DNA from: a virus
Lineage: Duplodnaviria > Caudoviricetes
DNA length: 51,578 nt
Direction: 5' to 3' (one strand)
IMG/VR virus record: IMGVR_UViG_3300011420_000010
Coordinates: 1 to 51,578 of that record
Position numbers and translations under genes: made by a program. Positions 1,362 through 51,578 of the stretch are shown one piece after another. The notes beneath the pieces are model-generated. The model did not search any database. It had not been told where the DNA came from and was given only the letters and a program-made list of their open reading frames with translations. The first letter of the stretch is position 1, and each line of letters starts with the position of its first letter.

Positions 1362-1508
1362 GAAACAGTACCTTCCTAATGGAACCGGCCCGTTTGAAAA
1401 CATGTCATGAGCGGCTGGGCCGAGCTGCCGCCGATGAACTCCTTTGGGATACTCGTCGACCCAGATACCGAGGTTGGGACGACGACGCGCACGCATTCCG
1501 AATCTCCT

Positions 1509-1718
1509 TTACGTTCGGGAACGGTTGAACGGGTGCCGCTTCGACGCGAACTGCTCGATCTCCTCCTGGAGAGCATTGGCCGTTTCGAGCGGCAGCTGCA
1601 ACGCCGGGAGAATTGCACGCAAGCAGATCGTGTTGACCGAGACGTCGGTCGACTCACTCTTAGCCGCCAGCGCCGCGTGGACGTTGTCCGGCATCCGCAC
1701 TGTGATGACCCTCATCAC
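1509..1718 (-). CDS. Ribbon-helix-helix (HicB/Arc-like) DNA-binding protein
   Basis: ITVRMPDNVHAALAAK...VSVNTI matches the RHH pattern; the start overlaps the upstream stop. Confidence 0.65.
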   Translation of the reverse strand: MMRVITVRMPDNVHAALAAKSESTDVSVNTICLRAILPALQLPLETANALQEEIEQFASKRHPFNRSRT

Positions 1719-2578: not shown

Positions 2579-2777
2579 CCTTGGCCTCCTTTACGTACTC
2601 TTCCTTGATCGCGATCAGCAAATCCGTCCCGTGCTTGAGCAGGACAGTCAACGCTTCGAAGCATTCGAACTTCGCTTCGTCGAGTTCCCGGTGCCGGATC
2701 CGGCCGAGGTGCTTCTCAGCTTCAATGTCCTCTTCCGAAGGAACCTCGACCCCATAGCCTTCTTCGTCGGTCTTCAT
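2553..2777 (-). CDS. Hypothetical protein (74 aa)
   Basis: ATGA-coupled to the upstream gene, with SD GGAGG. Confidence 0.6.
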   Translation of the reverse strand: MKTDEEGYGVEVPSEEDIEAEKHLGRIRHRELDEAKFECFEALTVLLKHGTDLLIAIKEEYVKEAKDGNRKARR

Positions 2778-3868
2778 CGCTCCACCTCCTTCTTCTTGAG
2801 CGGCTTGCGGTAAACGTCGCTGAAGTTGCCGCTCGTGATCGGACCGAACATGTCGGACCGACCGTACTTCCCGACGAGTGCGTTGGGGTTGGCGTAGTGC
2901 GGGCCGCCGTGAACCCAGTTCCAGATGTCAAGCAGAAGCGGCTGGAAGAACTTCTCCTCCCACTGCTCCAGCATCTCCGTCTTGAACTTCATCTTCCAGC
3001 GTTTGAAGTAATGGTCCTCGTCCTTGGCGATCGTCTCCGTCAACCGCTCCGTGAACGTCGGCAGGTCCTCGCCGCTCTTCTTCGAGGGCGTCGACTGCGG
3101 GTTGCGGATGACGTTGTAGAGGACGCCCTTCGGCCAAGCGCCAAACTCCAGCCGCATGCAGAGGGCGTACATCATGACCTGAAGGTCGAGGTGCATGCAG
3201 TCCTCGATCTCGAACTCATCGATGCGGCTCTTCGTCTTCGTCTCGAAGAGCCAGTATCGCTTCAGCCCCTTCGTTGGCTTAACGGACTTGCCGCTGTCTT
3301 CAAGGAAGACGCCGTCGAAGATGCCGTGGAGCGGGATCGGGAAGTTCAGTGGCCAGTGATCGTACTCGACGTCGAACGCATACTCGACGTCGACCCACTT
3401 GCGGGCCGTGTCTTCCTTGCCGTACTTCCGTTGATACGTCGGCCAGAGGGCCGCGGTCTTGGCGATGGAGAGATGAAGGTCCTCGACACGGCGGACCGAC
3501 GCCTGCGGGTTCTCCTCCTTGAAGACGCCGTCGTAGAAGTGGAGGACCTTCTCGATCCGCTTCTCCTTGCCGCGGTTCTGGTACTGCCTGCCCAGGAGCC
3601 AGTGCCAGAGTTCGCCGAAGTCGAGAGCGGCCGACGTCCGTGTCGACCGCCAGCCTTCCGCATACCGCAGGCGGAACTGCTCGCGACATTCCAGCCAGCG
3701 GCCGATGCTGCTGACCGAGAGGCCGTCGCGGCGCAACTGCCATCGCTGCGACTCCCGCTCCTGGGAGTGAATGCGCTTCGGCAGGTCACGCGCTTTTCCG
3801 CTGCTTCCCTTTTCCCTTGCCTCGCGGAGTCTTTGCATGAAGCTGCGCGTCCGTGCTTTGACGGCCAT
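2774..3868 (-). CDS. PD-(D/E)XK exonuclease (RecB/AddB/Cas4-like)
   Basis: Motifs LSVSSIGRWLECREQF, VEYAF, GIFDGV, ETKT and QVMMY. Start reassigned to MAVKAR. Confidence 0.85.
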   Translation of the reverse strand: MAVKARTRSFMQRLREAREKGSSGKARDLPKRIHSQERESQRWQLRRDGLSVSSIGRWLECREQFRLRYAEGWRSTRTSAALDFGELWHWLLGRQYQNRGKEKRIEKVLHFYDGVFKEENPQASVRRVEDLHLSIAKTAALWPTYQRKYGKEDTARKWVDVEYAFDVEYDHWPLNFPIPLHGIFDGVFLEDSGKSVKPTKGLKRYWLFETKTKSRIDEFEIEDCMHLDLQVMMYALCMRLEFGAWPKGVLYNVIRNPQSTPSKKSGEDLPTFTERLTETIAKDEDHYFKRWKMKFKTEMLEQWEEKFFQPLLLDIWNWVHGGPHYANPNALVGKYGRSDMFGPITSGNFSDVYRKPLKKKEVER

Positions 3869-4280
3869 GATATTCCCTTCTTTCAGCGTCCACGAAATCC
3901 AGAGCCGACGCCCGCGGCTGGCCCTTGTGATACTTGTAAACGATGACGACCGCTCCGGCCGCCTTCCAGAATCCGATGGCCTCTTCGACGTGTGCGCCGT
4001 CGATGAAGCCATGCCCGAGCCGATGTCGACGCCCGCCCTTCATGATGGCCAGCTCGTAGCTAATGCCGCTGAGGTTCGGCCGGTAGTCGGTGCACGTCAG
4101 GCGGAACCGCTGGCGAGTTCCCTTGCACCTCTTCCTTCGCCAGCCGTGCCGTGCCCAGTACCGCCGATCCATGTCCTTGACGTTCTCGTCCTTCGTCATG
4201 TCGACGACGGTGACGAGCTGCTCGACGGTCACGAGAGCAGCCCGCTTGACGGAGCCGGCGACTTTACGCTTCGCCTTCAT
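3786..4280 (-). CDS. Hypothetical basic protein
   Basis: ATGA-coupled start; the 3' end overlaps the next gene by ~80 bp. Confidence 0.55.
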   Translation of the reverse strand: MKAKRKVAGSVKRAALVTVEQLVTVVDMTKDENVKDMDRRYWARHGWRRKRCKGTRQRFRLTCTDYRPNLSGISYELAIMKGGRRHRLGHGFIDGAHVEEAIGFWKAAGAVVIVYKYHKGQPRASALDFVDAERREYHGRQSTDAQLHAKTPRGKGKGKQRKSA

Positions 4281-4471
4281 ACCGGCCTCCAGTCCGCCAG
4301 CGCCGCTTGCACGGTCCAGCCGTTCTGCCAGCAGGACTCGAAGTACTTCAGGTCGGCGGGCCGGAGCCGAGCCGCCCGCCGCTGCTCGTGGGCCTTGAGG
4401 TTCAGCCGGTCAACCCAGTCCCGCCAGGTCGGCCAGTCCATGTTCGTCTTCGTTGCGTTGAGTATGCTCAC
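4277..4471 (-). CDS. Hypothetical protein (64 aa, Trp-rich)
   Basis: GTGA-coupled start with SD GGAGG. Confidence 0.6.
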   Translation of the reverse strand: MSILNATKTNMDWPTWRDWVDRLNLKAHEQRRAARLRPADLKYFESCWQNGWTVQAALADWRPV

Positions 4472-4992
4472 GAGGCACCTCCTTGCAACAGGTCATGGCC
4501 GTTGATCCGCGGGAACGGCAACGTCTCCTCCGGGCCGGTCGAAGACTCCTCTTCCTGGTCGAAGTCGAGAACCTCCGTTGTCTCCTCGTCAGCCAGACGT
4601 TTGCGGACCTGCTCGTAGACTTTCGGCTCAAGGTTGTCTGCCATCCAACCAAGCGTCGCATAGAGCCAGTCCTCAACGGCCTCGACACGGAGCCGTAGCG
4701 ACGGCTGGTTGTGCCTCTGCGTTGCGAGTTTCCGATCGACCTCCTGCTTCCAATCTTCATCATCTCCGTCGCATTCCGGTTGCCCGTAGTTGAGAAACGC
4801 TTTCCAAGACATGCCGAGACTTTGACAACCGTTGTAGACGTGCGACGGGTTGACATCAAAGCCGAGAACTCGACTGCAGCGACGAGCGGACTCTTGCTGA
4901 GTCCACCGATTCGCCGCGATCGTCCCGCGGTGCTCAAGCAGCCAGCCGCGAACGAGACGACGCTCTTGAGGAGTAAGTACGAGACTCGCCAT
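4468..4992 (-). CDS. Hypothetical protein, possible HTH-like N-terminus
   Basis: SD AAGGAGG before ATG; fits the operon tiling. Confidence 0.6.
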   Translation of the reverse strand: MASLVLTPQERRLVRGWLLEHRGTIAANRWTQQESARRCSRVLGFDVNPSHVYNGCQSLGMSWKAFLNYGQPECDGDDEDWKQEVDRKLATQRHNQPSLRLRVEAVEDWLYATLGWMADNLEPKVYEQVRKRLADEETTEVLDFDQEEESSTGPEETLPFPRINGHDLLQGGAS

Positions 4993-5004
4993 CCGACACC
5001 TCCT

Positions 5005-5520
5005 TCATTTGAAAGAGAAACCCTGCGCCCATAGTCCGATGCCACAAGCATCCCAATCGTGAAGCCTCTTCGCGGAGAGGACCTCGAAAGCACGCTGCCC
5101 CAACGTCTCAATGATGCGACGCTGCATCATCTCCTTATCCATCTGCCCCTTCCACTGGTCGGCCGGTGCCGCCTCGAACGGGATCTTTCCGTGCAGCAGG
5201 GCGAGGCTCCCGACGACGCCCGCCGAGAAGGCGAGGTCGGTGAGGTCGCCGCGCACTGCAACTGCCCGGCCCGTCGCACCGTGAAACATGACCGGCGTTT
5301 CACAGACGACCCGCACCAGCTTCGCTCCGCCGGTGCCAACCTCCGCGGCCCGCTCCATGATCTGCCGGATGCACTCGTAGCGGTCGTTCTCGCCGCGGTT
5401 GGAGAAGTAGACCTCAGCCATGACGGGCGGCTTCAACTCGCGGCACCAGTGCTTGGCGTCCCACCAGCAGAAGCCCATCGCCTTCACTCCAGGATCAACG
5501 GTCAACACGTAGCTCTTCAT
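5005..5520 (-). CDS. ruvC: RuvC-like Holliday junction resolvase
   Basis: Motifs LTVDPG, VCETP, QWKG and HDWDACGIG give the RNase H-fold acidic residues. ATGA-coupled start at 5520. Confidence 0.8.
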   Translation of the reverse strand: MKSYVLTVDPGVKAMGFCWWDAKHWCRELKPPVMAEVYFSNRGENDRYECIRQIMERAAEVGTGGAKLVRVVCETPVMFHGATGRAVAVRGDLTDLAFSAGVVGSLALLHGKIPFEAAPADQWKGQMDKEMMQRRIIETLGQRAFEVLSAKRLHDWDACGIGLWAQGFSFK

Positions 5521-6854
5521 CTCGCTACCTCCTTCATCAGTTGCTGGATACGCTGCATCAATGCCCGAGCCGATCGCCGCTTCTCGTTCAGTGCCTGCAG
5601 CAGCGCCTCGTCGACGGTACCGCGGGCCACCAGATCCAGGACGAGGCTCGTCCGCTTCTTCATCGGATGCAGGATGCGGGCCGCTGCCTGCGACCGTGTC
5701 TCCCAGTCCGGATAGTTGTCGAAGAAGATGGCGACGTCCGCCTCGCTGAGATTGAGGCCGTAGCGGGCGCACCTCTCCTGGAGGAGAAGGCCGCGGCATC
5801 GACCTGCGCGCAGCCGTCGAACGCATTCATGTCGCCAGCGAAGTCGGGAGAGGCCGGTGAAGCAGTGGAGCTTGACTCCAGCTCGGCGAAGACGATCCGC
5901 CGCGAGTGCCACCTCGCGATTGAATCGGAAGAAGACGACGAACTTCTCGTTCTTGAGTTCGCCAGTCAGCAGCCGCACCAGCTCATCGAACTTGTGCGGC
6001 GAGAAGAACAGTTGATCGGATTGGAACTGCCGCGGGATGAGTCCGCTGGCGATCTGCTGGAGCCAGGAGTGGACGACCGGCGTCCACTTGGTCTCCGCCT
6101 CGCCGATGGCCCAGTCGCGGATGGCCCGGTTGTAGAGGCCTCGCACCGCGGCGGGCAGTTCGATGACGCGGCGCTGCCGCACGCACGGCATGAAGATGCC
6201 GGCTTCATCGGGCGTCATCGCGAAGCAGTGCTTGGCGAGTTCGCGGTCGAAGCGTTCCTTCGACTCGCGGCGCAGTCGCCACTCGAACCCGGCTTGGTAG
6301 GCGTGGCGGTGCCGCCACTTCCAGAAGGTGTCGCACCCCATGAAGCTTCCGTTGAGGAACAGCATCTGCGGAACAACTTCGAGGTCCGACTCCGGCCGCG
6401 GCTCCCCGGTTAGAATCGCCTTGTCCTTGACGTCCTTGAAGGCGGTGCAGCAAAGCTTCGTGATCTTCGCTGTAGGGTTCTTGATGAAGGTGGACTCGTC
6501 GAGTGCGACGACAGTCCACGGCTGATAGGCCAGCGGCCGACATGAACGCAGGCCTTCCGGGTTGAGGAGACACCAGCTGTTGGAGGGAGCGGAGTCCAGC
6601 AACTCCAGCTTTCGCTTGCTGCTCCCGACTAGAAGGACAGATGGCAGGCCTTCAGCCGCTAGCTCCTCGACCCAACCCGGAAGGACACTGAGCGGTGCGA
6701 CGACAAGCTTGCGGCCGTCGGCCGCGCGTCGCTGCGCCCATCGTATCAGGCAGAAGGACTTGCCGAGCCGCATCCGCAGCAGCAGTCCTATTGAATCTCG
6801 TTCTTGCGACCATCGCAATACCCGCCGCTGATGCGGCAGAGGTCTCCGTGCCAT
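5517..6854 (-). CDS. SNF2-family (SF2) helicase
   Basis: PLPHQ, MRLGKS (Walker A variant), VVAPLS, LDEST, LTGEP, GLNLSEA and SQAAARI. Confidence 0.85.
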   Translation of the reverse strand: MARRPLPHQRRVLRWSQERDSIGLLLRMRLGKSFCLIRWAQRRAADGRKLVVAPLSVLPGWVEELAAEGLPSVLLVGSSKRKLELLDSAPSNSWCLLNPEGLRSCRPLAYQPWTVVALDESTFIKNPTAKITKLCCTAFKDVKDKAILTGEPRPESDLEVVPQMLFLNGSFMGCDTFWKWRHRHAYQAGFEWRLRRESKERFDRELAKHCFAMTPDEAGIFMPCVRQRRVIELPAAVRGLYNRAIRDWAIGEAETKWTPVVHSWLQQIASGLIPRQFQSDQLFFSPHKFDELVRLLTGELKNEKFVVFFRFNREVALAADRLRRAGVKLHCFTGLSRLRWRHECVRRLRAGRCRGLLLQERCARYGLNLSEADVAIFFDNYPDWETRSQAAARILHPMKKRTSLVLDLVARGTVDEALLQALNEKRRSARALMQRIQQLMKEVAR

Positions 6855-7154
6855 CGTCCGCTCCCTTCGTGGGAGGTGTCGTTCCATCGCGGCCCGGTGC
6901 GACCATCACACCCGGCCGGGCCGCGGCGGCTGCTGGGCCGTGCGGCTCGAAGGCCCCAACTTGACAGCCGGACGTCTTTCTGAACTCCCCCCAATCGGGG
7001 GGACCGGCCGGAATTCGGCCTGGAGGAAGGGGGAGGGGAACCCCTTAAGGGCTGCACGGAGTGGCCGGTAGCCGGGCCGCCGCGGGCCAGCGACCCGGTT
7101 GCCGCTCGGCCCGCCCGCCGCTCGGCTGGCTGGACTACGTGCGAGGTACCAACG

Positions 7155-42724: not shown

Positions 42725-43102
42725 TTAGCCCAATAGGAGTGGGTCCGTCTGGGAATTTGCACGGGCTGTTTTTGTCGCATTTCGGGCCAGCTCGGCAATG
42801 CAGACTGCCAGCTTCTGGACGTCCGCATGGGTGTCACTGGTGTGGGATCGGAGTGCTATCTCCATCGCCATCGACTCGATCTGTTCAAGCGAAACGTGCA
42901 TTTCGGCTCCCTTCAAATTCCCAGTACAGGTCAGTTGTATGCGATCGTCGAGACGATCCTCACGCAAGAAACGAAACGATTGCGGCCCCTGGAAACCTAA
43001 CCGAACAACACTCGGCGTGAGCCGCCCCACGCCGATCGTGTATCGCTCATCGCCGTGCACGACGAGGATGGACTGCCCGAGCTTGCGGTCGACGGCGTAC
43101 AT
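42725..43102 (-). CDS. csrA: CsrA/RsmA-like RNA-binding protein with C-terminal extension
   Basis: MYAVDRKLGQSI...VRLGFQGPQSFRFLRE matches the CsrA pattern. TGATG-coupled start. Confidence 0.7.
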   Translation of the reverse strand: MYAVDRKLGQSILVVHGDERYTIGVGRLTPSVVRLGFQGPQSFRFLREDRLDDRIQLTCTGNLKGAEMHVSLEQIESMAMEIALRSHTSDTHADVQKLAVCIAELARNATKTARANSQTDPLLLG

Positions 43103-45243
43103 CAAGGCTTCTCCCTTCCGGCCGCGGCCGAGTCGAGGTGCAGGTCGAAGGGCTTCGCGATGCTCCACAGCTGTCGCATCGTCCGTGATACACGCCACTC
43201 GTCGCCCGGTCGGCCCGGCCCGGCCGCGCGTCGAGCTGCCTTGGTGGGTGCCACCACCCCCAACAGAGCCAAGTCGCGGAGCCGCCGCTTCAACATGTCG
43301 ACGGACATGGACGACTGCTGCGCGATGTCAACGTTCCGCAAGTCCGAGCCGCCCATCTCCATCATGGCAGCCACCACATCGAGGTTGAACCCGATCGCGG
43401 TATCGAAGGCCACGCGCTCCACGAGCCGATAGACTTCATGGTCGACCTTCTTCTTGCCGCGAACCACTGCCGCGGCCATGGCCAGCTTGCTGAACTGGGC
43501 ACAGAGCCGAGTCCCGATCTCACTGACCGGGCGGTAGACAAGGTCCTCTCCGCCACTGCTGGACCAGCTCCGCTTCCACTCCACCTCGTGACGGAGCGTG
43601 GCCACGATCTCGGCGAGGCCTCCGAGTCGCAGTGCAGCCCACTCGGGCATCATCTCACGAGCCTCGCATGCGGAGACGTCGCGGTCGAGGAAGGCCAACG
43701 ACGCGGCCTTCATCCGCTTGGCCTTCTCCAGCTCATGCCCGGCCCCCATGATGATGGCGTAGTACAGCGACTGCCGCTGGCTGAAGCCCATGTCCTTCAG
43801 CTGGAACTTGAGGAAGCGTTCACCCATCGTCGCGTTGGACTCGCCGTGGATCCGGTTGGTGACGCCCGCCAAGATGTTGAAGAAGCCGCGGTACTCGCGG
43901 TACTCCCCATTGCCGAACTTTCGTTGGATGAGGCCGTCGTACGCACCACGGAAGACGCCATGGACCTGCTGCGCGTCGAAGGGGTTGAGGCCCAGGATCT
44001 CGGTCCAGTCCTTGTAGACGCAGCACATCCCGAGCATGTTGGGGATGTCCGATGGGTCCTCGCCGTTGGCTCCGAGCTTGAACCCGGAGACCAGGTTCTT
44101 CGCAGTGACCGAGCTGCGGTAGAACACCTCCTGCACCTCCTCCAATGAGAGGAGGATCTCCGTCTTCCCCGAGCCGGGCGGTCCGACGAGGAAGACCCAG
44201 AGCGGCACGCCTGGCATCTGCGTGGAGAGCGTGATGGCGTACGTCAACCAGAGCGCCTCGACGAGGTCGGGCCGCATCTTGAACTCGGCCTTCTCGAACG
44301 CGGCCACCGTCTTCTCGAACGTTGGGTTGGACTTGGGCCGCGGCCTCTTCTCCTTCTTCCGCATGTCCTCCGGTGCCGCTTGATCCGCCCGCCTGTGCTG
44401 GCGTTTGATCATCTCCTTGAACTCAGCGTACACCGTTGCGGTCGAAGCCTCCTCGTCGATGCATCGCTTCACGATATGGTCGCGGACGTCCCACTTCTCT
44501 GGGTAGGTTTCGGGCCAGCATTGGAACCGCTGCTTGAACACGACACCGTTCAAGGTCTTGACCGAGTGCTTCAAGCTGTAGGTGTCGCCATCCGCGTCGT
44601 TGTCATACCGCCAGATGACGGTGCGGTTGCGGAAGTACGGTGCCCATTCCGGCTTGAAGATGCGGGCACCCGGAACTGCGACGACGATGGCCTTGCGTTT
44701 GATGCGGCGGTTGAGCCATCGCATGGCGCCTCCATCGAACTCGCCTTCGCAGATGTCGACGGGCCAGTCCTTCTTCTTGGGGTCCAGCAGCTCGGGCAGG
44801 TTCCAGAGCGAGACCTGGCAGTCCGACGTCGACCGCGGCTTGCCGCCCGGTCGCCAGCGCCGCAGGTCGCAGACGCGGCCCTTGGCGTTGAAGTGCGGGA
44901 TGAGCCAGTCGCCCGTCAACTCGTTGAAGGCCATGCCCATGCCCTTGAAGCAGGACGCTGGCATGCCGCCGCGGGCCTTCGAGAGAGCCGCCCAGTGGCG
45001 GTCCTCCGTCTCTCCGCGGCAGTGCTCCAGCCACTGCTCAAGGAAGGTCACGAGGTTACCTGACCGTCCGCACGTGTCCGGACTCGACGAACACACCCAC
45101 TGCGTTGACTCCGGCTTCACATGGAACGACCGCGTCTTCCCGCAGAAGGGACAGTCCGACTGCATGGACTGCCCACTCCTGGAGGTGAACTCAACGCCGT
45201 GCTCCTTGAAGGGCCGGAGAGGATCCTTCTCCTTATCCGGCAT
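43102..45243 (-). CDS. Primase-helicase: Zn finger, TOPRIM, MCM-like AAA+ and wHTH
   Basis: CPFC...C...C, ICEGEFD, YDNDADG, GPPGSGKT, ERFL and GTRL. Confidence 0.8.
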   Translation of the reverse strand: MPDKEKDPLRPFKEHGVEFTSRSGQSMQSDCPFCGKTRSFHVKPESTQWVCSSSPDTCGRSGNLVTFLEQWLEHCRGETEDRHWAALSKARGGMPASCFKGMGMAFNELTGDWLIPHFNAKGRVCDLRRWRPGGKPRSTSDCQVSLWNLPELLDPKKKDWPVDICEGEFDGGAMRWLNRRIKRKAIVVAVPGARIFKPEWAPYFRNRTVIWRYDNDADGDTYSLKHSVKTLNGVVFKQRFQCWPETYPEKWDVRDHIVKRCIDEEASTATVYAEFKEMIKRQHRRADQAAPEDMRKKEKRPRPKSNPTFEKTVAAFEKAEFKMRPDLVEALWLTYAITLSTQMPGVPLWVFLVGPPGSGKTEILLSLEEVQEVFYRSSVTAKNLVSGFKLGANGEDPSDIPNMLGMCCVYKDWTEILGLNPFDAQQVHGVFRGAYDGLIQRKFGNGEYREYRGFFNILAGVTNRIHGESNATMGERFLKFQLKDMGFSQRQSLYYAIIMGAGHELEKAKRMKAASLAFLDRDVSACEAREMMPEWAALRLGGLAEIVATLRHEVEWKRSWSSSGGEDLVYRPVSEIGTRLCAQFSKLAMAAAVVRGKKKVDHEVYRLVERVAFDTAIGFNLDVVAAMMEMGGSDLRNVDIAQQSSMSVDMLKRRLRDLALLGVVAPTKAARRAAGPGRPGDEWRVSRTMRQLWSIAKPFDLHLDSAAAGREKP

Positions 45244-45487
45244 ACCGGGTGCCTCCGTTCTTGCGGTACAACCCCTCGTACACGTAGATGAGGTGGCGGT
45301 CTTCATTGCCGCCGCTCCACCCACCGATGCTGTACACGTGCTGCCATTCGTTGCAGTACGTCCGTTCGCATGCGATGGTCTCCAGTGGCGGCTCCGCCAT
45401 CTGCATCTCGATGAGCTCACATAGCCCGTCGAGTGGTCCGCGATAGTAGCGAACGTACACCATACCGACTTCGGTTTGACCGTTCAT
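45233..45487 (-). CDS. Hypothetical protein
   Basis: SD GGAGG; YYRGPLDG motif. Confidence 0.55.
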   Translation of the reverse strand: MNGQTEVGMVYVRYYRGPLDGLCELIEMQMAEPPLETIACERTYCNEWQHVYSIGGWSGGNEDRHLIYVYEGLYRKNGGTRYAG

Positions 45488-45501: not shown

Positions 45502-47619
45502 TTAAGCTGCCGTAGCCCAATGGCACTTCCGTTTGTCAACCCAACGCTTGTCGACCGCCTCGCACGTCGTCAGCATGGGGATGCTGAAGACTCCACCGTC
45601 GTCCTCCATCAAGCGGCAGAGGTTCTTGACGTGCTCCATCCGCGGCTGCCCACGTTCGAACTCGAAGATGATCTCGTCGTGGATCGTCATGACTATCCAT
45701 CCGCGGACATCGTTGTCGCGGAGGTACGCTTCGCAAAGCCGCAGCGCCCGCTTCATCAGGTCTGCTGCCGAGCCTTGCACACGGTAGTTCACGCCGCGGT
45801 AGGCGAACTCCGGGTCGACCGCGATGCGTCGCCCGAAGGCCGTCCAGACGCAGCCTTCGCGCCGACCGTCCGCAGTGGTCCGTCGCATGAACGGCTCCAT
45901 GTCTGGGAAGGCCAGCGTGTACTCCTTCAGGAACTGGGCCGCGTAGTCGCGGCTGCACTTCATGAGGTTCATGATCGCAGGGATTCCGCCACCGAAGATC
46001 TTGGTGAAGATGGCGAGTTTCCCCTTGTTCATAGTGTTCTTCTTCTTGCAGTCCTCCTCCGCCTTGACGATGTCGAAGTCGTAGGCTTCGAGCCAGTTCT
46101 TGGCGGTGTGCCAGTCGGTCTTGCCCTTGTACTTCGCACGCATCTTCGCCATCAACATCGAGGCCTCTGAGTCCTGGGCCTTGTCGTCCACTCGCCGCAT
46201 GCCGAGGGCGTCGATGGCGTTGTCGATGGCGACGTCCGTGTTGCCGCCCCACACGTGGTTGGCGCAAGCAGAGTGGACGTGCACGCCGCTGTTGATGATG
46301 CGGAGCAGCTCCCGCTCCTGTGCCAAGTCGGCGAAGATCCGCACCTCCAGCTGGCTGTAGTCCGGACAATACCAGATGCAGCCGGGCGCTGGACCGAAGG
46401 GTGCACGGACATCGATGGGGTTCTTGGCACGGCCCGCCGACTTCGAGGCCACCTGGTGGAGTGCTGGGGTCCGGCAACTGTAGCGGCCGGTGCGAGGGCC
46501 CACCTGGTTGAAGTCGGCGTGGAGCTTCCAGTAGTGCAGCTCCTCATCGTCCACCATGTACGACCGGTACGACGCGAGGAACTGCCGAGCCTTCACTGCG
46601 CCGCGGTGCTTGAGGATGTGGTCGGGCAGCTCGCTCGACGCCGACAACTCCAGGAGAGCGTCGGCGTTGGTGGGCCGGGCGGCTTGGCTCTTGCCTCGCT
46701 GCGCGGGTGGCTTGAGCTTGAGGTGGTCGTAGATGACGGACGCCAGCTGGGGGTGGCTGTTGGGATTGAACGCGGCCAGCCGCTCGCCCTTCTTGTTGCG
46801 AAGGACGCCCGCCTTCAACGCGGCCCGGCCCGCTTCCTGGATGAAGTGGTCGTGCTGCTCCTCGTCGATGCGGTACGCCTTGTCCAGCTTCTTCAGTTCG
46901 TCCGGGTCGATGCGGACGCCACGCTCCTCCATGGCGTAGGTGGTGGGCCAGAGCCGCATCTCCTGTCGGTACGTCTTGCGGACGCCAAGCTCCTTCATCT
47001 TCTCGTTGAAGAAGATCCAGAGCAGCATCGTCCGCTCAGCGTCGCCGACCGCGTACTTGCGGCAGAGCCGCAGGATCCGGTGGGCCTCCTCGCAGTCGCC
47101 CAGGAGTTCGACCGCGTACATGCATAGCCAGTAGTCCTCCGAGACCTTTGTACCGATCTTCCAGCCCAGCTTCTTGGCTTTGCGGCGGAGCTTGACGATG
47201 GCCGACTGCAACTCCTTCTGGTCCTTGTCCGGGTAGTCGGCGTACTTCTTCGCCAGCGGCTTGAGGCCGAGGTTCAGCTCGCCGCTGTTGCAGCAGTGCA
47301 CCGCGAACATCGTCTCTTCGAGCTGGCAGCGGAAGACGCCGACGTTGTACCGGATGTGCCGCACGTCGAACTTCGCGTTGTGCATGACGATCGTCACGTT
47401 CGGATCAGCATGCAACCGACGGAGCGCTCGCCACTCCGCCGGTCGCTTGCTGTACTGGACCGTCCGCGTCCATGGGTCCACCGGGAACTCGAAGTACTCC
47501 GTATCCCCTTCGTCATTGCAGAAGCTGAAGGCGAACGGCGCAGCACCTCGCCAGACACTGAGGCCGGTGGTCTCAGTGTCTTCCGCGATGTACTTCCCGG
47601 TGATGAAGTGCTTCTTCAC
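45502..47619 (-). CDS. polA: Family A DNA polymerase with 3'-5' exonuclease
   Basis: Exo motifs DTETTG, HNAKFD and YAVGD; polymerase motifs DYSQLE, NYRVQGSAAD and IHDE. GTGA-coupled start. Confidence 0.95.
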   Translation of the reverse strand: MKKHFITGKYIAEDTETTGLSVWRGAAPFAFSFCNDEGDTEYFEFPVDPWTRTVQYSKRPAEWRALRRLHADPNVTIVMHNAKFDVRHIRYNVGVFRCQLEETMFAVHCCNSGELNLGLKPLAKKYADYPDKDQKELQSAIVKLRRKAKKLGWKIGTKVSEDYWLCMYAVELLGDCEEAHRILRLCRKYAVGDAERTMLLWIFFNEKMKELGVRKTYRQEMRLWPTTYAMEERGVRIDPDELKKLDKAYRIDEEQHDHFIQEAGRAALKAGVLRNKKGERLAAFNPNSHPQLASVIYDHLKLKPPAQRGKSQAARPTNADALLELSASSELPDHILKHRGAVKARQFLASYRSYMVDDEELHYWKLHADFNQVGPRTGRYSCRTPALHQVASKSAGRAKNPIDVRAPFGPAPGCIWYCPDYSQLEVRIFADLAQERELLRIINSGVHVHSACANHVWGGNTDVAIDNAIDALGMRRVDDKAQDSEASMLMAKMRAKYKGKTDWHTAKNWLEAYDFDIVKAEEDCKKKNTMNKGKLAIFTKIFGGGIPAIMNLMKCSRDYAAQFLKEYTLAFPDMEPFMRRTTADGRREGCVWTAFGRRIAVDPEFAYRGVNYRVQGSAADLMKRALRLCEAYLRDNDVRGWIVMTIHDEIIFEFERGQPRMEHVKNLCRLMEDDGGVFSIPMLTTCEAVDKRWVDKRKCHWATAA

Positions 47620-47996
47620 TTCTTGTGTCCTCCGCATCCGACGTGTCCACACTTAGGGCAGCAGACGCCATGGACGACGTCGCCAACCGTCACAGCTTCG
47701 AGATGCCGACCGTGGCATCGAGCCGCTCGCATCTCGAACAGCAGAAGTGCGGTGTTCAACAGACCAATCGCCGCTTCCGTTTCCGGACAAGGCGTCTGCT
47801 TATTGACGTACTTCGCTCGGTCGATCAAAGCCCGCAGTACCTCCTGCGAGGTCGTTCCGCTGTGGGCACCGGTGTTGCCAGGGTACTTCGAACCCTCCCG
47901 CTTGACGAACATGAGGATCGACTGCGGCTCCTGATCAACATACGGCCAGTCGAGGACCCGCAATCCATACGAGTGGCCAGGGTCTAATACCTTCAT
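47616..47996 (-). CDS. Tad1/Acb2-hairpin-like candidate anti-defence nucleotide sponge
   Basis: GHSY...LMFVK...HSGTTSQEVLRALIDR...PCPE...ALLLFEMR parallels the Tad1 motif order. Ends in CCPKCGH..C. Confidence 0.55.
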   Translation of the reverse strand: MKVLDPGHSYGLRVLDWPYVDQEPQSILMFVKREGSKYPGNTGAHSGTTSQEVLRALIDRAKYVNKQTPCPETEAAIGLLNTALLLFEMRAARCHGRHLEAVTVGDVVHGVCCPKCGHVGCGGHKK

Positions 47997-49057
47997 GGGT
48001 TCATCCTCAAACCGGTCCAAACGTTGCGGTCCCACAGTGACTCGTACGCTTCCTGGAGTTCAGCGAAGCGCTGCCGATCGGCCGCGGCCTCCGTGTCCCA
48101 GGTCTGGTGCGTGCGGTCCGCTGGGAAGTACTTGACGAGGTTGGCGTCCGGCACCGCGGCCATCTCCTCCGCACCGTGGTGGTGGAGGAAGAGCGGGCAA
48201 GGCGGCTCCGGGTCCTTGCCGAGCATCCGCTGAACATTGTCCGGGATGAACGGGCACCCGGCGAACCGCTCGTTGTGGATGCACGGTGGGTTGATGAGCG
48301 AGCGGAAGCAACCGTCGACGTGCTCGCAGAGCTCGTTCACGATGTCGGTGATGATCGGCCTCCACATGCCGAGCTGCGCGATCCAACAGCCGCGGCGTCG
48401 GACGATGTGCTTGAGAGCCTGGTAGTTCATCTTCCAGGTCAGCCGGCTGGACGCAGCCAGCGGCAGCACCTGCCGCGCGTCCTCCGGTGGGACGCCCGCC
48501 TTCACCAGCATCTGGTAGGCCCGCTGGCTGATAAGCATGAACTGGCTGTAGAGCTCCTCCGCCTTCATCAGCACGCCACCGTCGGCGTTGTCGACCGCCC
48601 GGTCGTCGATGCTGTCCGGCTTGAAGTAGTCGCCGTTGACTGCGAACTGGCCCATGTCCAGGACACGCATCGACTGCGACCACCAGCTGGACTGTACGTC
48701 GCCCGGCACGATGTCGACCGCGTAGTTCTCGCCGAACCGGTGGCCGATGCGGTGCCGAACGATCTGCTCCCGGAGGGAGACCGGAACGTTCTCCAACAGG
48801 AAGATGAAGTCGAGGTTCTCGGCGACCGGGATGTCCGACTCGATGACCTGCGAGAAGACCTCTCGGATCTCGTCGGCCAACGCAAGGTCGCAGAGAGCCG
48901 CTTCGTGGTACTGCTCCGGTGTCATGATCGTGTCGCGTGAACGACTCGCATGCCACAGTGCATAGATCGTCTCCACCGGGTATCCGATGGTGGAGAGGAG
49001 CCGAGCCGTCGGACGCCGCGGTCCGACCATTCGTTCGGTGATGCTGAACTCTTGCAT
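47993..49057 (-). CDS. thyX: Divergent flavin-dependent thymidylate synthase-like protein
   Basis: EQIVRHR, SQSMR, GVPPEDARQVLP, KMN and AQ motifs. Confidence 0.8.
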   Translation of the reverse strand: MQEFSITERMVGPRRPTARLLSTIGYPVETIYALWHASRSRDTIMTPEQYHEAALCDLALADEIREVFSQVIESDIPVAENLDFIFLLENVPVSLREQIVRHRIGHRFGENYAVDIVPGDVQSSWWSQSMRVLDMGQFAVNGDYFKPDSIDDRAVDNADGGVLMKAEELYSQFMLISQRAYQMLVKAGVPPEDARQVLPLAASSRLTWKMNYQALKHIVRRRGCWIAQLGMWRPIITDIVNELCEHVDGCFRSLINPPCIHNERFAGCPFIPDNVQRMLGKDPEPPCPLFLHHHGAEEMAAVPDANLVKYFPADRTHQTWDTEAAADRQRFAELQEAYESLWDRNVWTGLRMNP

Positions 49058-49065
49058 TGGAACTC

Positions 49066-50118
49066 CTAGGGCATTGAGAGGGTTGAAGTGGAAGCGGCGT
49101 GCGCCGCAAGGTTGACCTGCAGTTGCTTGTACTGGCAGATCTCCGAACACGGCATGTCCGCCTTGCCGTAGTGGCAATGCGGACGATAGCGGTCAAGCAA
49201 CCGCCGAGCTGCACTCATCGCAGGGGAGTGGGCGACTTCCTGGAAGTAGTTCCCGATGCGAAGCTGCGGGTACGTCGTGATGGCCTCGCCGCCCGCCAAG
49301 CAGCACGGGTACCAGTCGCCGTTGGCCTTCGCGTGGAAGCTGATGTTGCCCGCGTAGCAGGGCACCGACTTCGCAGCGTCGGACTCGCAGAACTGCCGCG
49401 TCTCCCAGACGTCGTCGGCGAAGGACGTTGGCACACTCCAGGACTTCGCGTCCTTGGCCAGCTCCCGGTACCGACTCCAGAACCCGTCGTCGCGGCCGAC
49501 CCGCGGCCCGATGCCTGCCATGAAGACGGCTTTGCGGATTGGCGTCTGCCGATGCAGCACCTCCAGCGCGTCGAGGATGGCGTAGCAGTGGCCGAGGTTC
49601 TCGGGCATGACGGTCGTCCGAGTGGCGAGGCCGCGGTGCCCGAGGTGCTTCATCCGGCGAAGCACCTCATGCGGGTCGGTCTGCTTGTCGCCGCGGATCT
49701 TCGCGTAGATCTCAGGTTGCACGGCGTCGAGCGAAACGCAGACGTCGTCGAAGATCTGCCACTGCGCCGGGTCCGGGTCCTGCGTAAGAGCCGTGTTGAT
49801 CTGCAGCTTGAAGCGGCTGTAGGTCGTCTCGCCCGCCCACCAGTTGAGGAAGGCGTCGAGGTACGGCCAAGCCTGCGGGTCGCCGCCCGTCAAGGTGAGG
49901 TGCTCGAATGGATGCGTCCGCATCAGCTCGACGCAGAGCGCCTGCAAGGTCGGCAGCTCCCACATGCCACGAACGACGCCGCTCAGATCGTCACGCCAAG
50001 ACTCGCAGGCCCGGCAATGCTGGAAGCACTTCGAGCTGACCTCGACCTGCCCGGAGACGTACCCGGTGCGAAGCAAGGCCAGCTTCGCGTACTGCTGGAT
50101 GTCGGATCGGATCTCCAT
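49066..50118 (-). CDS. Radical SAM enzyme with SPASM/twitch domain
   Basis: CFQHCRAC (CxxxCxxC), LTGGDP, VSLDA, CYAG...ANGDWYPCC and CSEIC. Confidence 0.92.
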   Translation of the reverse strand: MEIRSDIQQYAKLALLRTGYVSGQVEVSSKCFQHCRACESWRDDLSGVVRGMWELPTLQALCVELMRTHPFEHLTLTGGDPQAWPYLDAFLNWWAGETTYSRFKLQINTALTQDPDPAQWQIFDDVCVSLDAVQPEIYAKIRGDKQTDPHEVLRRMKHLGHRGLATRTTVMPENLGHCYAILDALEVLHRQTPIRKAVFMAGIGPRVGRDDGFWSRYRELAKDAKSWSVPTSFADDVWETRQFCESDAAKSVPCYAGNISFHAKANGDWYPCCLAGGEAITTYPQLRIGNYFQEVAHSPAMSAARRLLDRYRPHCHYGKADMPCSEICQYKQLQVNLAAHAASTSTLSMP

Positions 50119-50571
50119 CTACTCTTCCTCCTCTACCGCGACTGCTCCCGCGGCCTCTTCAGCCATCGCGAAGTACGCCCGACCATCGACGTAATGGTCG
50201 AGTCCCTGTGGGTCGACGGCCACCCGGTTCGCCTTGTTAAGGGCCATCATGATCTCGACGAGGTGCGCCGGGATCGGATGAGCGAGCTGGATGCCGTAGT
50301 GGTTCTGCAACAACCCGGTCCACATGAGGCCGAGGTTGCCGTGCCCAGCTTTGTGGTCCGGGCCGTACCGCAATGACCGCACCTCGCGGATGTGGTCCTC
50401 CGCCGCGGGCCGCGTCGAAGGGTCGACGAGAAGTTCCGACATGAACTTCGAGTCGTCTTGATGCGGTTCGACTTCGACCTTCCTCTTCTGTCCGTGCCCT
50501 CGCCGCGTCCGAGTCAATGGCTCTTCGTCCGCGGTGAGCTTCTTACCAGAGACGCCTCTGCTTCTCTTCAT
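50119..50571 (-). CDS. DUF6378-like all-alpha protein, putative dNTP pyrophosphatase-related
   Basis: R...YG...W...MMALNKANR...DHYVDGRAY pattern. Confidence 0.7.
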   Translation of the reverse strand: MKRSRGVSGKKLTADEEPLTRTRRGHGQKRKVEVEPHQDDSKFMSELLVDPSTRPAAEDHIREVRSLRYGPDHKAGHGNLGLMWTGLLQNHYGIQLAHPIPAHLVEIMMALNKANRVAVDPQGLDHYVDGRAYFAMAEEAAGAVAVEEEE

Positions 50572-51178
50572 TGCAGATCTCCTTCATGATGCGGGCCGCT
50601 TGCGTAACGAGCGGCCGGATGAAATCGCACTTGGACTGTTCGAACTCGCCGAAGTATGCGTCGAGCTTCTCGATGTGCTCGACTGCGTTTCGGTTGCCGC
50701 TCTCGATCTCCTGGATAACGTACGAGAGCACGCTGAGGAAGTCGGCGAAGGAAACGACGAGGCCTTCCGGCGAGTTGTCCTTCGCTGTCTTCCAGGAATC
50801 GGCCAGCTCCACCTGCCACTGACCTTCAACCAGGTTGTCGGCCAGCTGCCGCATGGCAGTCGCGGCCACCCGGTCCAGCTCCGCCCGCAGCGTCGGGTCG
50901 GAGTGCTTGAAGTTGCGCGGCCAGTCGCCCGATCGCGACTCCTCGACATCGTGGATGACGGTCTTCGACATGAGCTTCCGCCAGTTGAGCGGCGTTCCAT
51001 GCCAGAACTCGTACCACTGGCCGATGAGCGTCGCGTACAAGGCGACGAAGAAGCTGTGCTCCGCGACGGTCTCACGGTGGTTGACGCGGCACGTCGAGTA
51101 GCGGTCGACGTATCGAAGTCGAACGAGGTCGCCGCGCAGCATCTCGCGGATGTTCAGCTCGTGCTTCGGCAACGTCAT
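50543..51178 (-). CDS. HD-domain deoxynucleotide phosphohydrolase (YfbR/DatZ-like)
   Basis: VDRY, ETVAEHSF, IHDVEESRSGD and FAD motifs. Confidence 0.88.
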   Translation of the reverse strand: MTLPKHELNIREMLRGDLVRLRYVDRYSTCRVNHRETVAEHSFFVALYATLIGQWYEFWHGTPLNWRKLMSKTVIHDVEESRSGDWPRNFKHSDPTLRAELDRVAATAMRQLADNLVEGQWQVELADSWKTAKDNSPEGLVVSFADFLSVLSYVIQEIESGNRNAVEHIEKLDAYFGEFEQSKCDFIRPLVTQAARIMKEICNEEKQRRLW

Positions 51179-51578
51179 TCAACACCCCCTGTCCAGCCGG
51201 CTCCGACGAGCGGCATCTCGTGGGCCTTGCGGTTGAGGTAGTCTTCGAGCTGCTCCCAGCCGTGGATCACCTCGACCGCGGCTTCCGTCAACATGAGGTT
51301 GAGGTTGCCGGGCGGCTCCAACGTGAAGAGGGCCGTCCGCTTCTGGAGTGCGTACCCGTAGCCCAGCTCCCACACCGTGCCGAGATCCGGCTGGCAAAGC
51401 GGCCCCTTGATCGGCTCAAGGTTGCGGGCGGAGATCTGCCCTTCCCCAGTCGGCCGCAGCAGCCGCGGGTTCAAGCCTGGCGTCGTGATCTGGCAGTCCT
51501 TCTCTTCGCAGAGATAGACTCCGATCTCGTTCGACGGCTGCAGTCGGTCGATCCACGCCAGGATCTCGGTGCAGTCGC
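51175..51578 (-). CDS. NDT-family protein, C-terminal part; open to the window end
   Basis: DCTEILAWID...PDLGTVWELGYGYAL...NLML gives the DxGTxxExG catalytic motif and the NxM motif. Confidence 0.85.
   Translation of the reverse strand, partial: DCTEILAWIDRLQPSNEIGVYLCEEKDCQITTPGLNPRLLRPTGEGQISARNLEPIKGPLCQPDLGTVWELGYGYALQKRTALFTLEPPGNLNLMLTEAAVEVIHGWEQLEDYLNRKAHEMPLVGAGWTGGVE

Follow-up and report, generated by a model that had tools for sequence, protein, structure and literature searches.

A facultative radical SAM gene beside NDT, HD, DUF6378, and ThyX genes in a replication module of uncultured phages

Introduction

Several described systems share features with the locus analyzed here, which lies in a 51,578-nucleotide phage contig (the window, meaning the whole stretch of DNA that was analyzed). 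Thymidine hypermodification clusters are known from phages M6, ViI, and PaMx11, and combinatorial gene sets in metagenomes have been noted (PMC8989533). Like the window, these phages have an operon near replication genes that combines a C5 one-carbon enzyme with variable tailoring enzymes, in M6 including a radical SAM enzyme (PMC8989533). However, those clusters start with a ThyA-type dUMP hydroxymethylase, whereas the window lacks PF00303 and its C5 enzyme is a ThyX; they also use a kinase and an aGPT-Pplase on DNA (PMC8989533). M6 gp53 is described as spore-photoproduct-lyase-like (PMC8989533), whereas the window radical SAM protein (rSAM) matches SPASM/twitch enzymes, and no spore photoproduct lyase entry was among the 50 Foldseek matches listed for it. 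The Bacillus phage SP-15, a 222-kb myovirus, has a pair of ThyX-family proteins alongside an HD 5'-nucleotidase, and one ThyX paralogue is hypothesized to make a modified dUMP (PMC5977210). The window likewise has a ThyX-family protein and an HD enzyme that matches the SP-15 nucleotidase, but tblastn with the window rSAM found nothing among 50,697 phage records.

The Z-genome system (PurZ, DatZ, and MazZ), like the window, has genes for an HD hydrolase and for an all-alpha protein beside the polymerase gene. The window has no PurZ, however, its HD protein is closer to YfbR than to DatZ, and its DUF6378 protein matches nothing MazG-like, either by Pfam or by fold. A YfbR-like HD phosphohydrolase and a radical SAM enzyme acting on a deoxynucleotide also occur together in oxetanocin A biosynthesis, where OxsA reportedly pairs with the B12-dependent rSAM OxsB; the window HD protein matches OxsA at only 2e-3, and Pfam shows no B12-binding domain in the window rSAM. 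MoaA, BtrN, BlsE, DesII, SkfB, and anSME resemble the window rSAM in having a radical SAM core followed by a C-terminal Cys-rich domain, but the identity of the window protein to the PDB matches listed is 10 to 16%, and it belongs to a block of its own.

Gene layout of the locus

The minus strand of the window encodes, in order, NDT, a YfbR-like HD hydrolase, DUF6378, a twitch-type rSAM, and a long ThyX, followed by a small open reading frame (ORF), PolA, and a primase-helicase (Table 1). NDT and HD overlap by 4 nt, and HD and DUF6378 by 29 nt, while the gaps are 0 nt between DUF6378 and rSAM and 8 nt between rSAM and ThyX. An earlier note on this DNA had described five tightly packed or coupled genes leading into polA. 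The packing and the five gene identities were confirmed (by Pfam, and for rSAM with a structure model), and all five genes lie on the minus strand where the note had placed them, but NDT is split by the contig ends and a sixth, small ORF intervenes between ThyX and PolA. This ORF is not conserved in relatives: it had no tblastn match in related loci except in L079, a metagenome contig with 99.8 to 99.9% identity that joins both window ends.

Table 1. Positions of the module features in the window
Feature	Coordinates	Strand	Evidence or remark
NDT, N-terminal part	1..156	-	First 52 codons (MRDLYLAAPFF...); extends past window position 1 and picks up again at the opposite window end
Module upstream half	255..6887	-	Pfam; order shared with relatives
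Conserved 413-aa protein without family	255..1496	-	Order kept in relatives
AAA_24	1715..2578	-	Pfam
PD-(D/E)XK nuclease	2774..4012	-	Pfam
SNF2 helicase	5517..6887	-	Pfam
Primase-helicase, 772 aa	43102..45420	-	phrog_47, CHC2 zinc finger; last gene before terminator-like site
Family A DNA polymerase with 3'-5' exonuclease domain, 716 aa	45502..47652	-	PF00476 175 bits, PF01612 44.8 bits
Small ORF between ThyX and PolA, 139 aa	47616..48035	-	phrog_2428 5.8e-5
Long ThyX variant, 354 aa from ATG	47993..49057	-	PF02511 71.3 bits (cut-off 24.8)
rSAM with twitch-like C-terminal Cys domain, 350 aa	49066..50118	-	CX3CX2C; AF2/Foldseek SPASM/twitch
DUF6378 protein, 150 aa	50119..50571	-	PF19905 36.4 bits (cut-off 27.1)
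HD phosphohydrolase, YfbR-like 5'-deoxynucleotidase type, 211 aa	50543..51178	-	PF12917 84.6 bits (cut-off 25.9)
NDT, C-terminal part	51175..51578	-	133 codons, DLGTVWELG catalytic-Glu motif

L079 supplies the 40 nt that the window lacks at the contig junction, equal to about 13 codons between the two NDT pieces. Across the junction the operon continues upstream with the 413-aa protein, AAA_24, the PD-(D/E)XK nuclease, and the SNF2 helicase, and NDT is contiguous with these upstream-half genes in L079. Tblastn matches of the two NDT parts also adjoin each other in relatives. The NDT rebuilt via L079 has 199 aa and scores 45.9 bits against PF05014 (cut-off 28.8), whereas the window fragment alone stays below the cut-off at 21.3 bits. 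Between positions 43000 and 51578, no promoter-like site was found on the minus strand and the only terminator-like site on that strand (43035 to 43012) lies 3' of the primase-helicase; the number of promoter- and terminator-like sites in this region is not above that in shuffled sequence. PolA showed at most 26% identity to GenBank phages among the matches listed.

Distribution of the module and of rSAM

The module is common to many otherwise unrelated uncultured phages, in the order SNF2, PD-(D/E)XK, AAA_24, 413-aa protein, NDT, HD, DUF6378, a variable slot, ThyX, PolA, and primase-helicase. All 14 rSAM-anchored viral loci fall within this one module type with the same order, and the gene arrangement therefore goes beyond chance. 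Anchoring on ThyX gave 62 loci, comprising 14 of the module type with rSAM, 19 of the module type without it, 2 that could not be judged, and 27 with ThyX and no other module gene. The 19 module loci without rSAM keep NDT, HD, and ThyX, and usually DUF6378. Of the 34 rows in a PolA tree, 14 have rSAM, 18 lack it, and 2 are unlabelled; the window clusters there with 99% support with its nearest relatives, L017 and L018, both of which lack rSAM. The presence of rSAM on this tree takes at least eight changes, and six are forced by the starred branches alone. Whole-record searches found rSAM in none of five module records lacking it at the locus and in none of five large ThyX-only records, with a positive control of 5/5. 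Thus rSAM is a facultative occupant of the variable slot, and NDT, HD, and ThyX stay regardless. With 19 module loci lacking rSAM against 14 having it, the earlier view of the five genes as a single co-inherited pathway does not hold. Conserved synteny of the five genes, which the earlier note had named beforehand as the point to look for, gave a divided answer: the order is conserved wherever rSAM anchors the locus, but the gene is missing from the nearest relatives.

The spacing between rSAM and ThyX was counted in 35 rSAM lineages (95% nucleotide identity), 29 of them evaluable downstream. A long ThyX follows rSAM within 500 nt in 17 of the 29 and at 0.7 to 2.6 kb in 6, so that it lies no more than 2.6 kb downstream in 23; in the remaining 6 there is none, and rSAM is located elsewhere, before PolA, SNF2, or PD-(D/E)XK. 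In 8 of 24 evaluable lineages, a second ThyX paralogue is found on the upstream side of rSAM. The slot holds an SDR gene in seven loci, all of them rSAM-free, and further occupants in relatives are class I methyltransferases, NADAR, DUF488-N3a, and a second rSAM with a B12-binding-like region. The position of rSAM beside ThyX may merely reflect an insertion hot spot. It is conceivable, though on the unlikely side, that rSAM is an accessory gene outside nucleotide supply, a protein or peptide maturase or a counter-defense enzyme, in a permissive insertion slot. Its patchiness on the PolA tree, its place beside SNF2 or PD-(D/E)XK in three lineages, and the NADAR and DUF488-N3a genes in the equivalent slot of three closely related contigs are consistent with such a role. 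The frequent position upstream of ThyX argues against it, as does the window itself, which has no small ORF beside rSAM in its tight flanks. Moreover, comparison of two near-complete relatives with rSAM and three without it revealed no window gene outside the module that co-occurs with rSAM.

The radical SAM family

The window rSAM falls slightly under the Pfam cut-offs (PF04055, 24.0 versus 29.5; PF13186, 18.6 versus 21.5), and PF04055, with or without PF13186, is precomputed in most of the 84 homologues listed. In 36 homologues, C31, C35, C38, GGDP, C254, C272, C273, C324, and C328 are invariant or nearly so; the pattern CX9-15GX4C is the SPASM/twitch signature. The family comprises 87 representatives among 1.84 billion (E value of at most 1e-30), and its edge is sharp, with full-length members above 235 bits and generic rSAMs below 135 bits. 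Judged from these sequence searches, the family is small, sharply bounded, and almost confined to phages. It has no named member among the homologues listed, and no description of it was found in the literature searched, which upholds, for rSAM, the earlier note's view that the operon is undescribed.

The AF2 model of rSAM (pLDDT 92.5) matched SPASM/twitch structures in Foldseek with probability 1.0 and TM scores by query of 0.54 to 0.66, the matches including SuiB, CteB, SkfB, BlsE, DesII, MoaA, anSME, and viperin. Since the closest structures mix peptide and protein maturases with nucleotide and sugar enzymes, the fold does not pick a substrate class. The accessory role gains from the RiPP and protein maturases SuiB, CteB, SkfB, and anSME being among the top structures, and from matches of family members to maturase models of NCBIfam (W_rSAM_matur in 34/36 and mycofactocin maturase in 25/36, beside MoaA in 33/36). 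All NCBIfam scores of family members fall far short of the respective cut-offs. Against the accessory role, there are only about 20 residues ahead of the cluster motif, which leaves no space for a peptide-recognition domain.

The long ThyX

The window ThyX scores 60.7 bits against TIGR02170, under the cut-off of 87.9. Its motif layout runs from RHR through a 19-residue insert to SWWSQSMR, and its C-terminal extension carries four invariant cysteines (C224, C259, C268, and C287); both the insert and the cysteines are missing in the aligned stretch of Thermotoga maritima ThyX. These features could mean chemistry beyond plain dTMP synthesis. The earlier note had this divergent ThyX building a non-canonical nucleotide with rSAM, a proposal that fits poorly with the catalytic positions. 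At the RHR, S/R, and two Arg positions of the T. maritima enzyme, the window protein retains the aligned residues, and RHR, SxxxQSxR, and the two Arg positions are kept in 11/11 rows with rSAM and in nearly all rows without it. The best column separating phages with and without rSAM reaches only 0.71.

Alternatively, rSAM might serve ThyX by maturing the Cys-rich extension or by supplying a cofactor or a one-carbon or flavin-related intermediate under anoxia. We regard this as very unlikely. Such a service would agree with the 17 lineages in which rSAM lies immediately upstream of ThyX and with the extension cysteines. Among PDB sequences, the rSAM profile matches MoaA, a member of the pterin pathway, best (9e-11, core only), and some SDRs, the enzymes found in the same slot of seven rSAM-free loci, reduce pteridines. 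However, the Cys motif is kept where rSAM is absent (three cysteines in 19/19 rows and the fourth in 17/19), it is also present in phages of about 100 kb with no rSAM anywhere, and in two lineages rSAM lies directly before PolA with no ThyX.

HD, NDT, and DUF6378

The closest structures bear on the depleting role that the earlier note had given to the hydrolases. For HD, the PDB matches were Lin2634 (3e-9), YfbR (6e-7), OxsA (2e-3), and DatZ (7e-3), with the HD motifs inside the alignment with YfbR, and the score against the NCBIfam YfbR equivalog NF003009 was 48.3 bits, under its cut-off of 122. The likeness to DatZ that the note had drawn is therefore weaker than that to YfbR, and there is no PurZ. 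For NDT, the closest PDB entry and sole significant solved relative is 6evs, a true N-deoxyribosyltransferase (1.4e-7), with an alignment that spans YLAxPFFNE and DxGTxWELG; DNPH1, MilB, and BlsM, to which NDT had been likened, were not found among its solved relatives. The DUF6378 protein, taken earlier for a MazZ-type all-alpha hydrolase, is indeed all-alpha in its AF2 model (pLDDT 82.9), in which the C-terminal domain has four helices and the first 45 residues are poorly modeled, but Foldseek found no fold relative in the PDB (best E value, 1.1), MazG or MazZ included. In other phages the DUF6378 domain occurs fused with DUF4406.

The earlier note had joined these genes into a single base-replacement pathway, in which rSAM and the divergent ThyX make a non-canonical pyrimidine nucleotide while HD, DUF6378, and NDT destroy the canonical competitor. 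We consider this distinctly improbable, and the analysis lends no support to an obligate base-replacement pathway of all five genes. The tight coupling of the five genes upstream of PolA speaks for it, together with the ThyX insert and cysteines and the membership of HD in phrog_7076 (4.6e-19), which is labeled dATP triphosphohydrolase. SP-15, whose thymine is partly hypermodified, provides the top cultured-phage match of HD among the matches listed (its HD 5'-nucleotidase, 28% identity and 95% coverage), and one of its two ThyX-family genes is hypothesized to encode a hydroxymethyluridylate synthase (PMC5977210). Against it stand the four genes that remain without rSAM in 19 module loci, the nearest relatives included, the indistinct ThyX catalytic motifs, the YfbR-like HD, the DUF6378 fold, and an NDT that is like base-swapping NDTs and unlike dNMP hydrolases. 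A dedicated kinase, a transferase, and a second thymidylate synthase are likewise absent from the window. The absence of markers of known modification pathways, reported earlier, was corroborated by zero six-frame matches for PurZ (PF00709), ThyA-type enzymes (PF00303), QueC, PTPS/QueD, TGT/DpdA, and GT2, while the positive controls gave matches.

Proposed role

We put at about even the chance that these genes make up the nucleotide-supply arm of the replication module, providing salvage and dTMP, with an optional nucleotide-tailoring rSAM. By their sequences, rSAM, HD, NDT, and ThyX look intact. As members of their families, the YfbR-like HD enzyme would dephosphorylate dNMPs, and NDT would exchange bases among the resulting deoxynucleosides, possibly with DUF6378 as a helical partner of NDT-type enzymes. 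ThyX would convert dUMP to dTMP with flavin and methylene-folate. The rSAM is predicted to cleave SAM at its CX3CX2C cluster, and the 5'-deoxyadenosyl radical, beside the twitch auxiliary cluster, would then attack a small phosphorylated substrate, for which a pyrimidine deoxynucleotide supplied by the ThyX step is the likeliest candidate. This would yield, as an optional trait, a tailored nucleotide or a mark on the DNA. The rSAM might be a sign of a new modification of nucleotides or DNA, but the gene is missing from the closest relatives of the phage.

Among the slot occupants, the second rSAM is found in locus L092, where its B12-binding-like region scores under the Pfam cut-off. The other slot occupants in relatives are likewise small-molecule enzymes.

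Organization of the gene run

The earlier note had described a coupled run of five genes ahead of polA, and that run is present. Genes encoding a nucleoside 2-deoxyribosyltransferase family protein (NDT), a YfbR-like hydrolase (HD), a DUF6378 protein, a 350-aa twitch-type radical SAM enzyme (rSAM) and ThyX follow one another, with, in order, a 4-nt overlap, a 29-nt overlap, a 0-nt gap and an 8-nt gap at the junctions. Families in the run were assigned with Pfam, PHROGs and NCBIfam. The operon extends upstream past NDT to genes for a 413-aa protein, an AAA_24 protein, a PD-(D/E)XK nuclease and an SNF2 helicase. The coding strand is minus throughout the window, and the chosen ORFs have a third-position G+C of 0.67 to 0.89. 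Within 43000-51578, no minus-strand promoter-like sites were found, and the sole minus-strand terminator-like site comes after the primase-helicase gene; the site evidence is weak because the counts do not exceed those in shuffles. No GenBank phage matched the region by blastn.

Coordinates of the gene run in the window and of slot genes and second ThyX paralogues in related loci (L-numbers)
Feature	Location	Strand
NDT fragment	51576..51175	minus
HD	51178..50543	minus
DUF6378	50571..50119	minus
rSAM	50118..49066	minus
ThyX	49057..47993 (from ATG)	minus
139-aa ORF	48035..47616	minus
PolA	47652..45502	minus
Primase-helicase	45420..43102	minus
Short-chain dehydrogenase (SDR) in slot	L033:5992-6747
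Class I methyltransferase in slot	L030:6244-7005
NADAR in slot	L046:2801-3256
DUF488-N3a in slot	L046:4629-4994
Second radical SAM with B12-binding-like region	L092:139-1746
Second ThyX paralogue	L003:6084-6992
Second ThyX paralogue	L005:6147-7004
Second ThyX paralogue	L006:1759-2643
Second ThyX paralogue	L007:319-1227

The window (51,578 bp) is an entire IMG/VR virus record of class 'linear', with 100% completeness by the CheckV estimate; a search of it for tRNA genes found none. Its NDT fragment has no start; the first codons of the gene (MRDLYLAAPFF...) lie on the minus strand at window 156..1. A metagenome contig of 9,627 bp, L079, is 99.8 to 99.9% identical to the window and spans both of its ends, with 40 extra nt between them (L079:2423-2462) that are absent from the window. 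Since L079 joins the ends, the genome is circular or circularly permuted despite its 'linear' class. The NDT gene is split by the assembly break (window 1-156 and 51175-51578); intact in L079, it is a 199-codon ORF that matches PF05014 at 45.9 bits against a cut-off of 28.8.

A conserved replication module with a variable slot before ThyX

A locus search by single protein gave only 1 relative, and an alignment-based search was used instead. All 14 of the rSAM-anchored viral loci sit in one module with the order SNF2, u1, PD-(D/E)XK, AAA_24, the 413-aa family, NDT, HD, usually DUF6378, a variable slot, ThyX, PolA and primase-helicase. The 413-aa protein of the window (255-1496) matches no Pfam, PHROG or NCBIfam family; its family keeps its position between AAA_24 and NDT across module loci and is a conserved component of the replication module.

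Searching from ThyX gave 62 loci: 14 with rSAM, 19 of the module type without it, 2 that were not judgeable and 27 with a long ThyX and no other module gene, many of these in contigs of 60 to 114 kb. The counts are not dereplicated and include near-copies (e.g., L027/L029, L046/L074, L069/L076 and L017/L018). L017 and L018, the nearest relatives of the window (56 to 57% identity in ThyX and 53 to 54% in PolA), are among the loci without rSAM, and in them about 210 nt separate DUF6378 from the ThyX gene that follows. In a PolA tree with 34 rows, rSAM presence requires at least 8 changes; starred branches force 6. In complete records, an rSAM profile found nothing in five module phages lacking rSAM or in five large phages with ThyX only, and recovered all five positive controls. 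Synteny of the five genes with PolA, which the earlier note had named as a check, holds for the module, with rSAM as an optional member. The phyletic pattern is at odds with a single five-gene base-replacing pathway, as are the nearer affinities of HD, NDT and DUF6378 described below. The loci show a conserved core with an optional rSAM gene in a variable slot.

The slot lies between HD or DUF6378 and ThyX and holds differing genes in relatives. Short-chain dehydrogenases occupy it in 7 loci, all lacking rSAM; class I methyltransferases are found in L030 and L096, in both cases between rSAM and ThyX; NADAR and DUF488-N3a occur in three closely related contigs; L092 has a second radical SAM gene with a B12-binding-like region; and a family of 270 to 370 aa without assignment is also present. 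With metagenome contigs added, there were 35 rSAM lineages at 95% nucleotide identity, 29 of them evaluable downstream. A long ThyX lies within 500 nt downstream of rSAM in 17 of the 29 and, with genes inserted between, at 0.7 to 2.6 kb in 6 more. The remaining 6 have no ThyX downstream: two run directly into PolA, three adjoin SNF2 or PD-(D/E)XK, and in one rSAM comes after a second radical SAM gene with a B12-binding-like region.

When the window was compared by BLAST with five near-complete relatives (G+C of 47 to 59%), only the replication module was recognizably common, and 18 out of 20 other window ORFs (7239-19502 and elsewhere) fell into no PHROG family. The module therefore appears to be a replication cassette common to phages whose remaining genes are unrelated or unrecognizable.

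A discrete radical SAM family

The window rSAM has a CX3CX2C motif (KCFQHCRAC, residues 30 to 38) predicted to bind the SAM-cleaving 4Fe-4S cluster, and an alignment of 36 homologues shows C31, C35 and C38 to be nearly invariant. It scores 24.0 bits on PF04055 against a gathering cut-off of 29.5; most homologues carry a precomputed PF04055 match. We take the SPASM domain, with two auxiliary clusters, to be marked by a seven-Cys pattern including CX2CX5CX3C, and the twitch type, with one auxiliary cluster, by CX9-15GX4C with further Cys after it. A full SPASM domain was rejected: the protein has five conserved C-terminal Cys only (C254, C272, C273, C324 and C328), a CX3C pair stands in place of the full motif, and PF13186 gives 18.6 bits against a cut-off of 21.5. 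The twitch pattern is present as C254-X12-G267-X4-C272. Conserved along the family are CX3CX2C, GGDP, the five C-terminal Cys (C-X12-G-X4-CC ... C-X3-C) and an invariant terminal Pro.

No NCBIfam model came near its cut-off on rSAM; NF033640 gave a partial match at 2.7e-6, far under its cut-off. A word-indexed search found 84 homologues (32 to 100% identity), none with an informative name, and when 1.84 billion representatives were searched exhaustively with a profile, 87 matched at an E value of ≤1e-30, with scores dropping from >235 bits for full-length members to <135 bits for generic radical SAM proteins. A tblastn search of 50,697 GenBank phage records gave no match. Scanning 185,579 species, one genome each, gave a single match; it lies on a MAG contig of 3.7 kb, itself a piece of this phage module. 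ESM Atlas returned generic radical SAM clusters only, and a BFVD fold search returned uncharacterized phage radical SAM proteins only. Identity in rSAM compared with that in PolA, HD and ThyX (11 loci) gave rho values of -0.06, 0.55 and 0.16, respectively, which are uninformative with saturated distances. A full-text literature search, which did not extend to the supplementary tables of PMC8989533 and PMC5977210, found no description of the rSAM family or of its pairing with ThyX.

The AF2 model of rSAM (pLDDT 92.5) matched radical SAM structures at a probability of 1.0. Its PDB neighbors SuiB, CteB, SkfB, BlsE, DesII, MoaA, anSME and viperin are SPASM/twitch proteins of many substrate classes (TM by query of 0.50 to 0.66, identity of 10 to 16%), and the best sequence match among solved structures was MoaA, at 9e-11 and over the core only. 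Alternatively, rSAM may be a maturase or a counter-defense gene that does no more than occupy the slot; against this reading stands the placement of rSAM upstream of a long ThyX in 23 of 29 lineages.

A long ThyX with four invariant cysteines

ThyX matches PF02511 at 71.3 bits against 24.8, covering profile positions 52 to 172 of 191, and scores 60.7 bits on the NCBIfam equivalog TIGR02170, under the cut-off of 87.9. In T. maritima ThyX we take the relevant roles to lie with RHR, a downstream Ser/Arg motif and two substrate-binding Arg. The window RHR aligns with that of T. maritima, whose two Arg positions are matched by ARxVLPL and by the second Arg of RRRG. After RHR and before SWWSQSMR there is a 19-residue insert, and a C-terminal extension has four invariant Cys (C224, C259, C268 and C287), which may form a metal or Fe-S site. 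A full-text literature search found no description of a Cys-rich ThyX extension. The long Cys4 ThyX was found in 62 viral loci (L017-L077 among them), including complete phages of ∼100 to 114 kb with direct terminal repeats and no other module gene.

The motif positions are kept across 30 orthologue rows, and motifs, insert and four Cys are equally conserved in rows with and without rSAM. One row was misgrouped: L077, the second ThyX paralogue of an rSAM-carrying locus, was counted in the group without rSAM. A column scan for rSAM-linked residues that included this row found no perfect discriminator, the best reaching 0.71. Less probably, rSAM may serve ThyX itself; their adjacency is in keeping with this reading, and the equal conservation of the ThyX features where rSAM is missing speaks against it. 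A predicted complex of ThyX and rSAM, run without controls, had a score of 0.00 (mark, 0.32) and is uninformative.

Another occupant of the slot is a second ThyX paralogue, present in 8 of the 24 rSAM lineages that could be evaluated for it and seen only in rSAM-carrying loci. This paralogue has Val or Thr instead of the first Arg of RHR and Gln instead of the SxR Arg. It retains the four Cys, and a CCxxGCxGC tail is added in some copies.

HD, NDT, DUF6378 and known modification pathways

HD scores 84.6 bits on PF12917 against 25.9 and aligns with YfbR (2paq) across residues 17 to 189, including the EHS and HD motifs; on the NCBIfam equivalog NF003009 it reaches 48.3 bits, under the cut-off of 122. 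Its matches to Lin2634 (3e-9) and YfbR (6e-7) are better than those to OxsA (2e-3) or DatZ (7e-3). Matches in cultured phages, SP-15 first, are 23 to 32% identical, and those with an annotation mostly carry the label 5'-nucleotidase or 5'-deoxynucleotidase. The NDT motif DLGTVWELG, whose Glu is presumably the nucleophile, aligns with DDTGTAWELG of 6evs, and both motif regions align. At an E value of ≤1, a PDB search with NDT found the NDTs 6evs and 1s2d, two chance Hsp70 matches and nothing else; 6evs, an N-deoxyribosyltransferase, is the sole significant solved relative.

The DUF6378 protein has PF19905 as its only Pfam match, and ESM Atlas returned generic DUF6378 clusters only. Its AF2 model has four helices and no PDB match better than an E value of 1.1 and a TM of 0.25. 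In other phages DUF6378 is fused to DUF4406, which we take to be a member of the NDT clan. In L051 (4146-5867), a DUF6378 domain lies inside a 573-aa protein with long low-complexity flanks. According to PMC13432834, DUF6378 adjoins ThyX in a Faecalibacterium phage.

The suggestion that the hydrolases are of the base-depleting type finds no match in these relationships. HD is nearer YfbR than DatZ; DUF6378 has no MazG-like Pfam or fold match, so that it was rejected as a MazZ/MazG all-alpha NTP pyrophosphohydrolase; and NDT, with only true NDTs as relatives in the PDB search, was rejected as a DNPH1/MilB/BlsM nucleotide N-glycosidase. The reported lack of known-pathway markers held up. Six-frame searches, in which controls worked, gave 0 matches for PurZ (PF00709; controls 14/14), for QueC, QueD and DpdA/TGT of 7-deazaguanine DNA modification (PF06508, PF01242 and PF01702), for GT2 glycosylation and for ThyA-type enzymes (PF00303), the sole family tested for 5-hmdU-based, M6/ViI-type thymidine hypermodification. 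A Z-genome system was rejected on the PurZ result together with the affinity of HD and the lack of a MazG-like fold match for DUF6378; 7-deazaguanine modification, M6/ViI-type hypermodification and GT2 glycosylation were rejected on the zero matches in these searches.

In the papers cited here, known phage pyrimidine hypermodification pathways all start from a ThyA-type enzyme; the SPL-like radical SAM protein gp53 of the M6 thymidine pathway (PMC8989533) is their only radical SAM step, and it belongs to another radical SAM lineage than the window rSAM. The same papers include a hypothesized ThyX-family hydroxymethylase in SP-15 (PMC5977210) and ThyA homologues that can make 5-hydroxy-dCMP (PMC13326640). 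An analogy of HD plus rSAM to OxsA/OxsB is only a lead.

Possible functions and significance

Judged by its protein families, the core would serve deoxynucleotide supply, with HD yielding deoxynucleosides, NDT swapping bases and ThyX making dTMP, and rSAM would tailor the nucleotide coming from the ThyX step. A more elaborate proposal, which we regard as rather unlikely, is that rSAM and the long Cys4 ThyX, with the second ThyX lacking two Arg in eight lineages, extend or rearrange the pyrimidine C5 substituent by radical chemistry to give an undescribed thymidine-derived base, the methyltransferase, SDR and other slot genes being alternative tailoring steps in one combinatorial ThyX-based hypermodification system.

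In the replication operons of these sediment phages, a discrete rSAM family adjoins a ThyX of distinctive type. If rSAM acts on nucleotides, this would be a ThyX-based, oxygen-sensitive route to modified DNA, and rSAM could serve as a marker in searches for phages of this kind. Otherwise, the tidy five-gene 'operon' still resolves into a conserved core and a swappable slot, a caution against deducing pathways from one genome alone. In its own right, the long Cys4 ThyX is a candidate enzyme variant of interest.

Other genes in the window

Two paralogues at 39269-39661 and 41165-41575 resemble the podophage GP4 fiber protein gp80 (PF23140; one at 162 bits, the other at 24 bits, which is below the cut-off). 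The one at 41165-41575 also matches a twin-arginine signal (PF10518) at 23.4 bits, the cut-off being 22.7. The presumed structural region encodes a 556-aa protein with a trypsin-like peptidase domain (31689-33359) and a 346-aa protein with a concanavalin/Laminin_G_3 domain (34611-35651).
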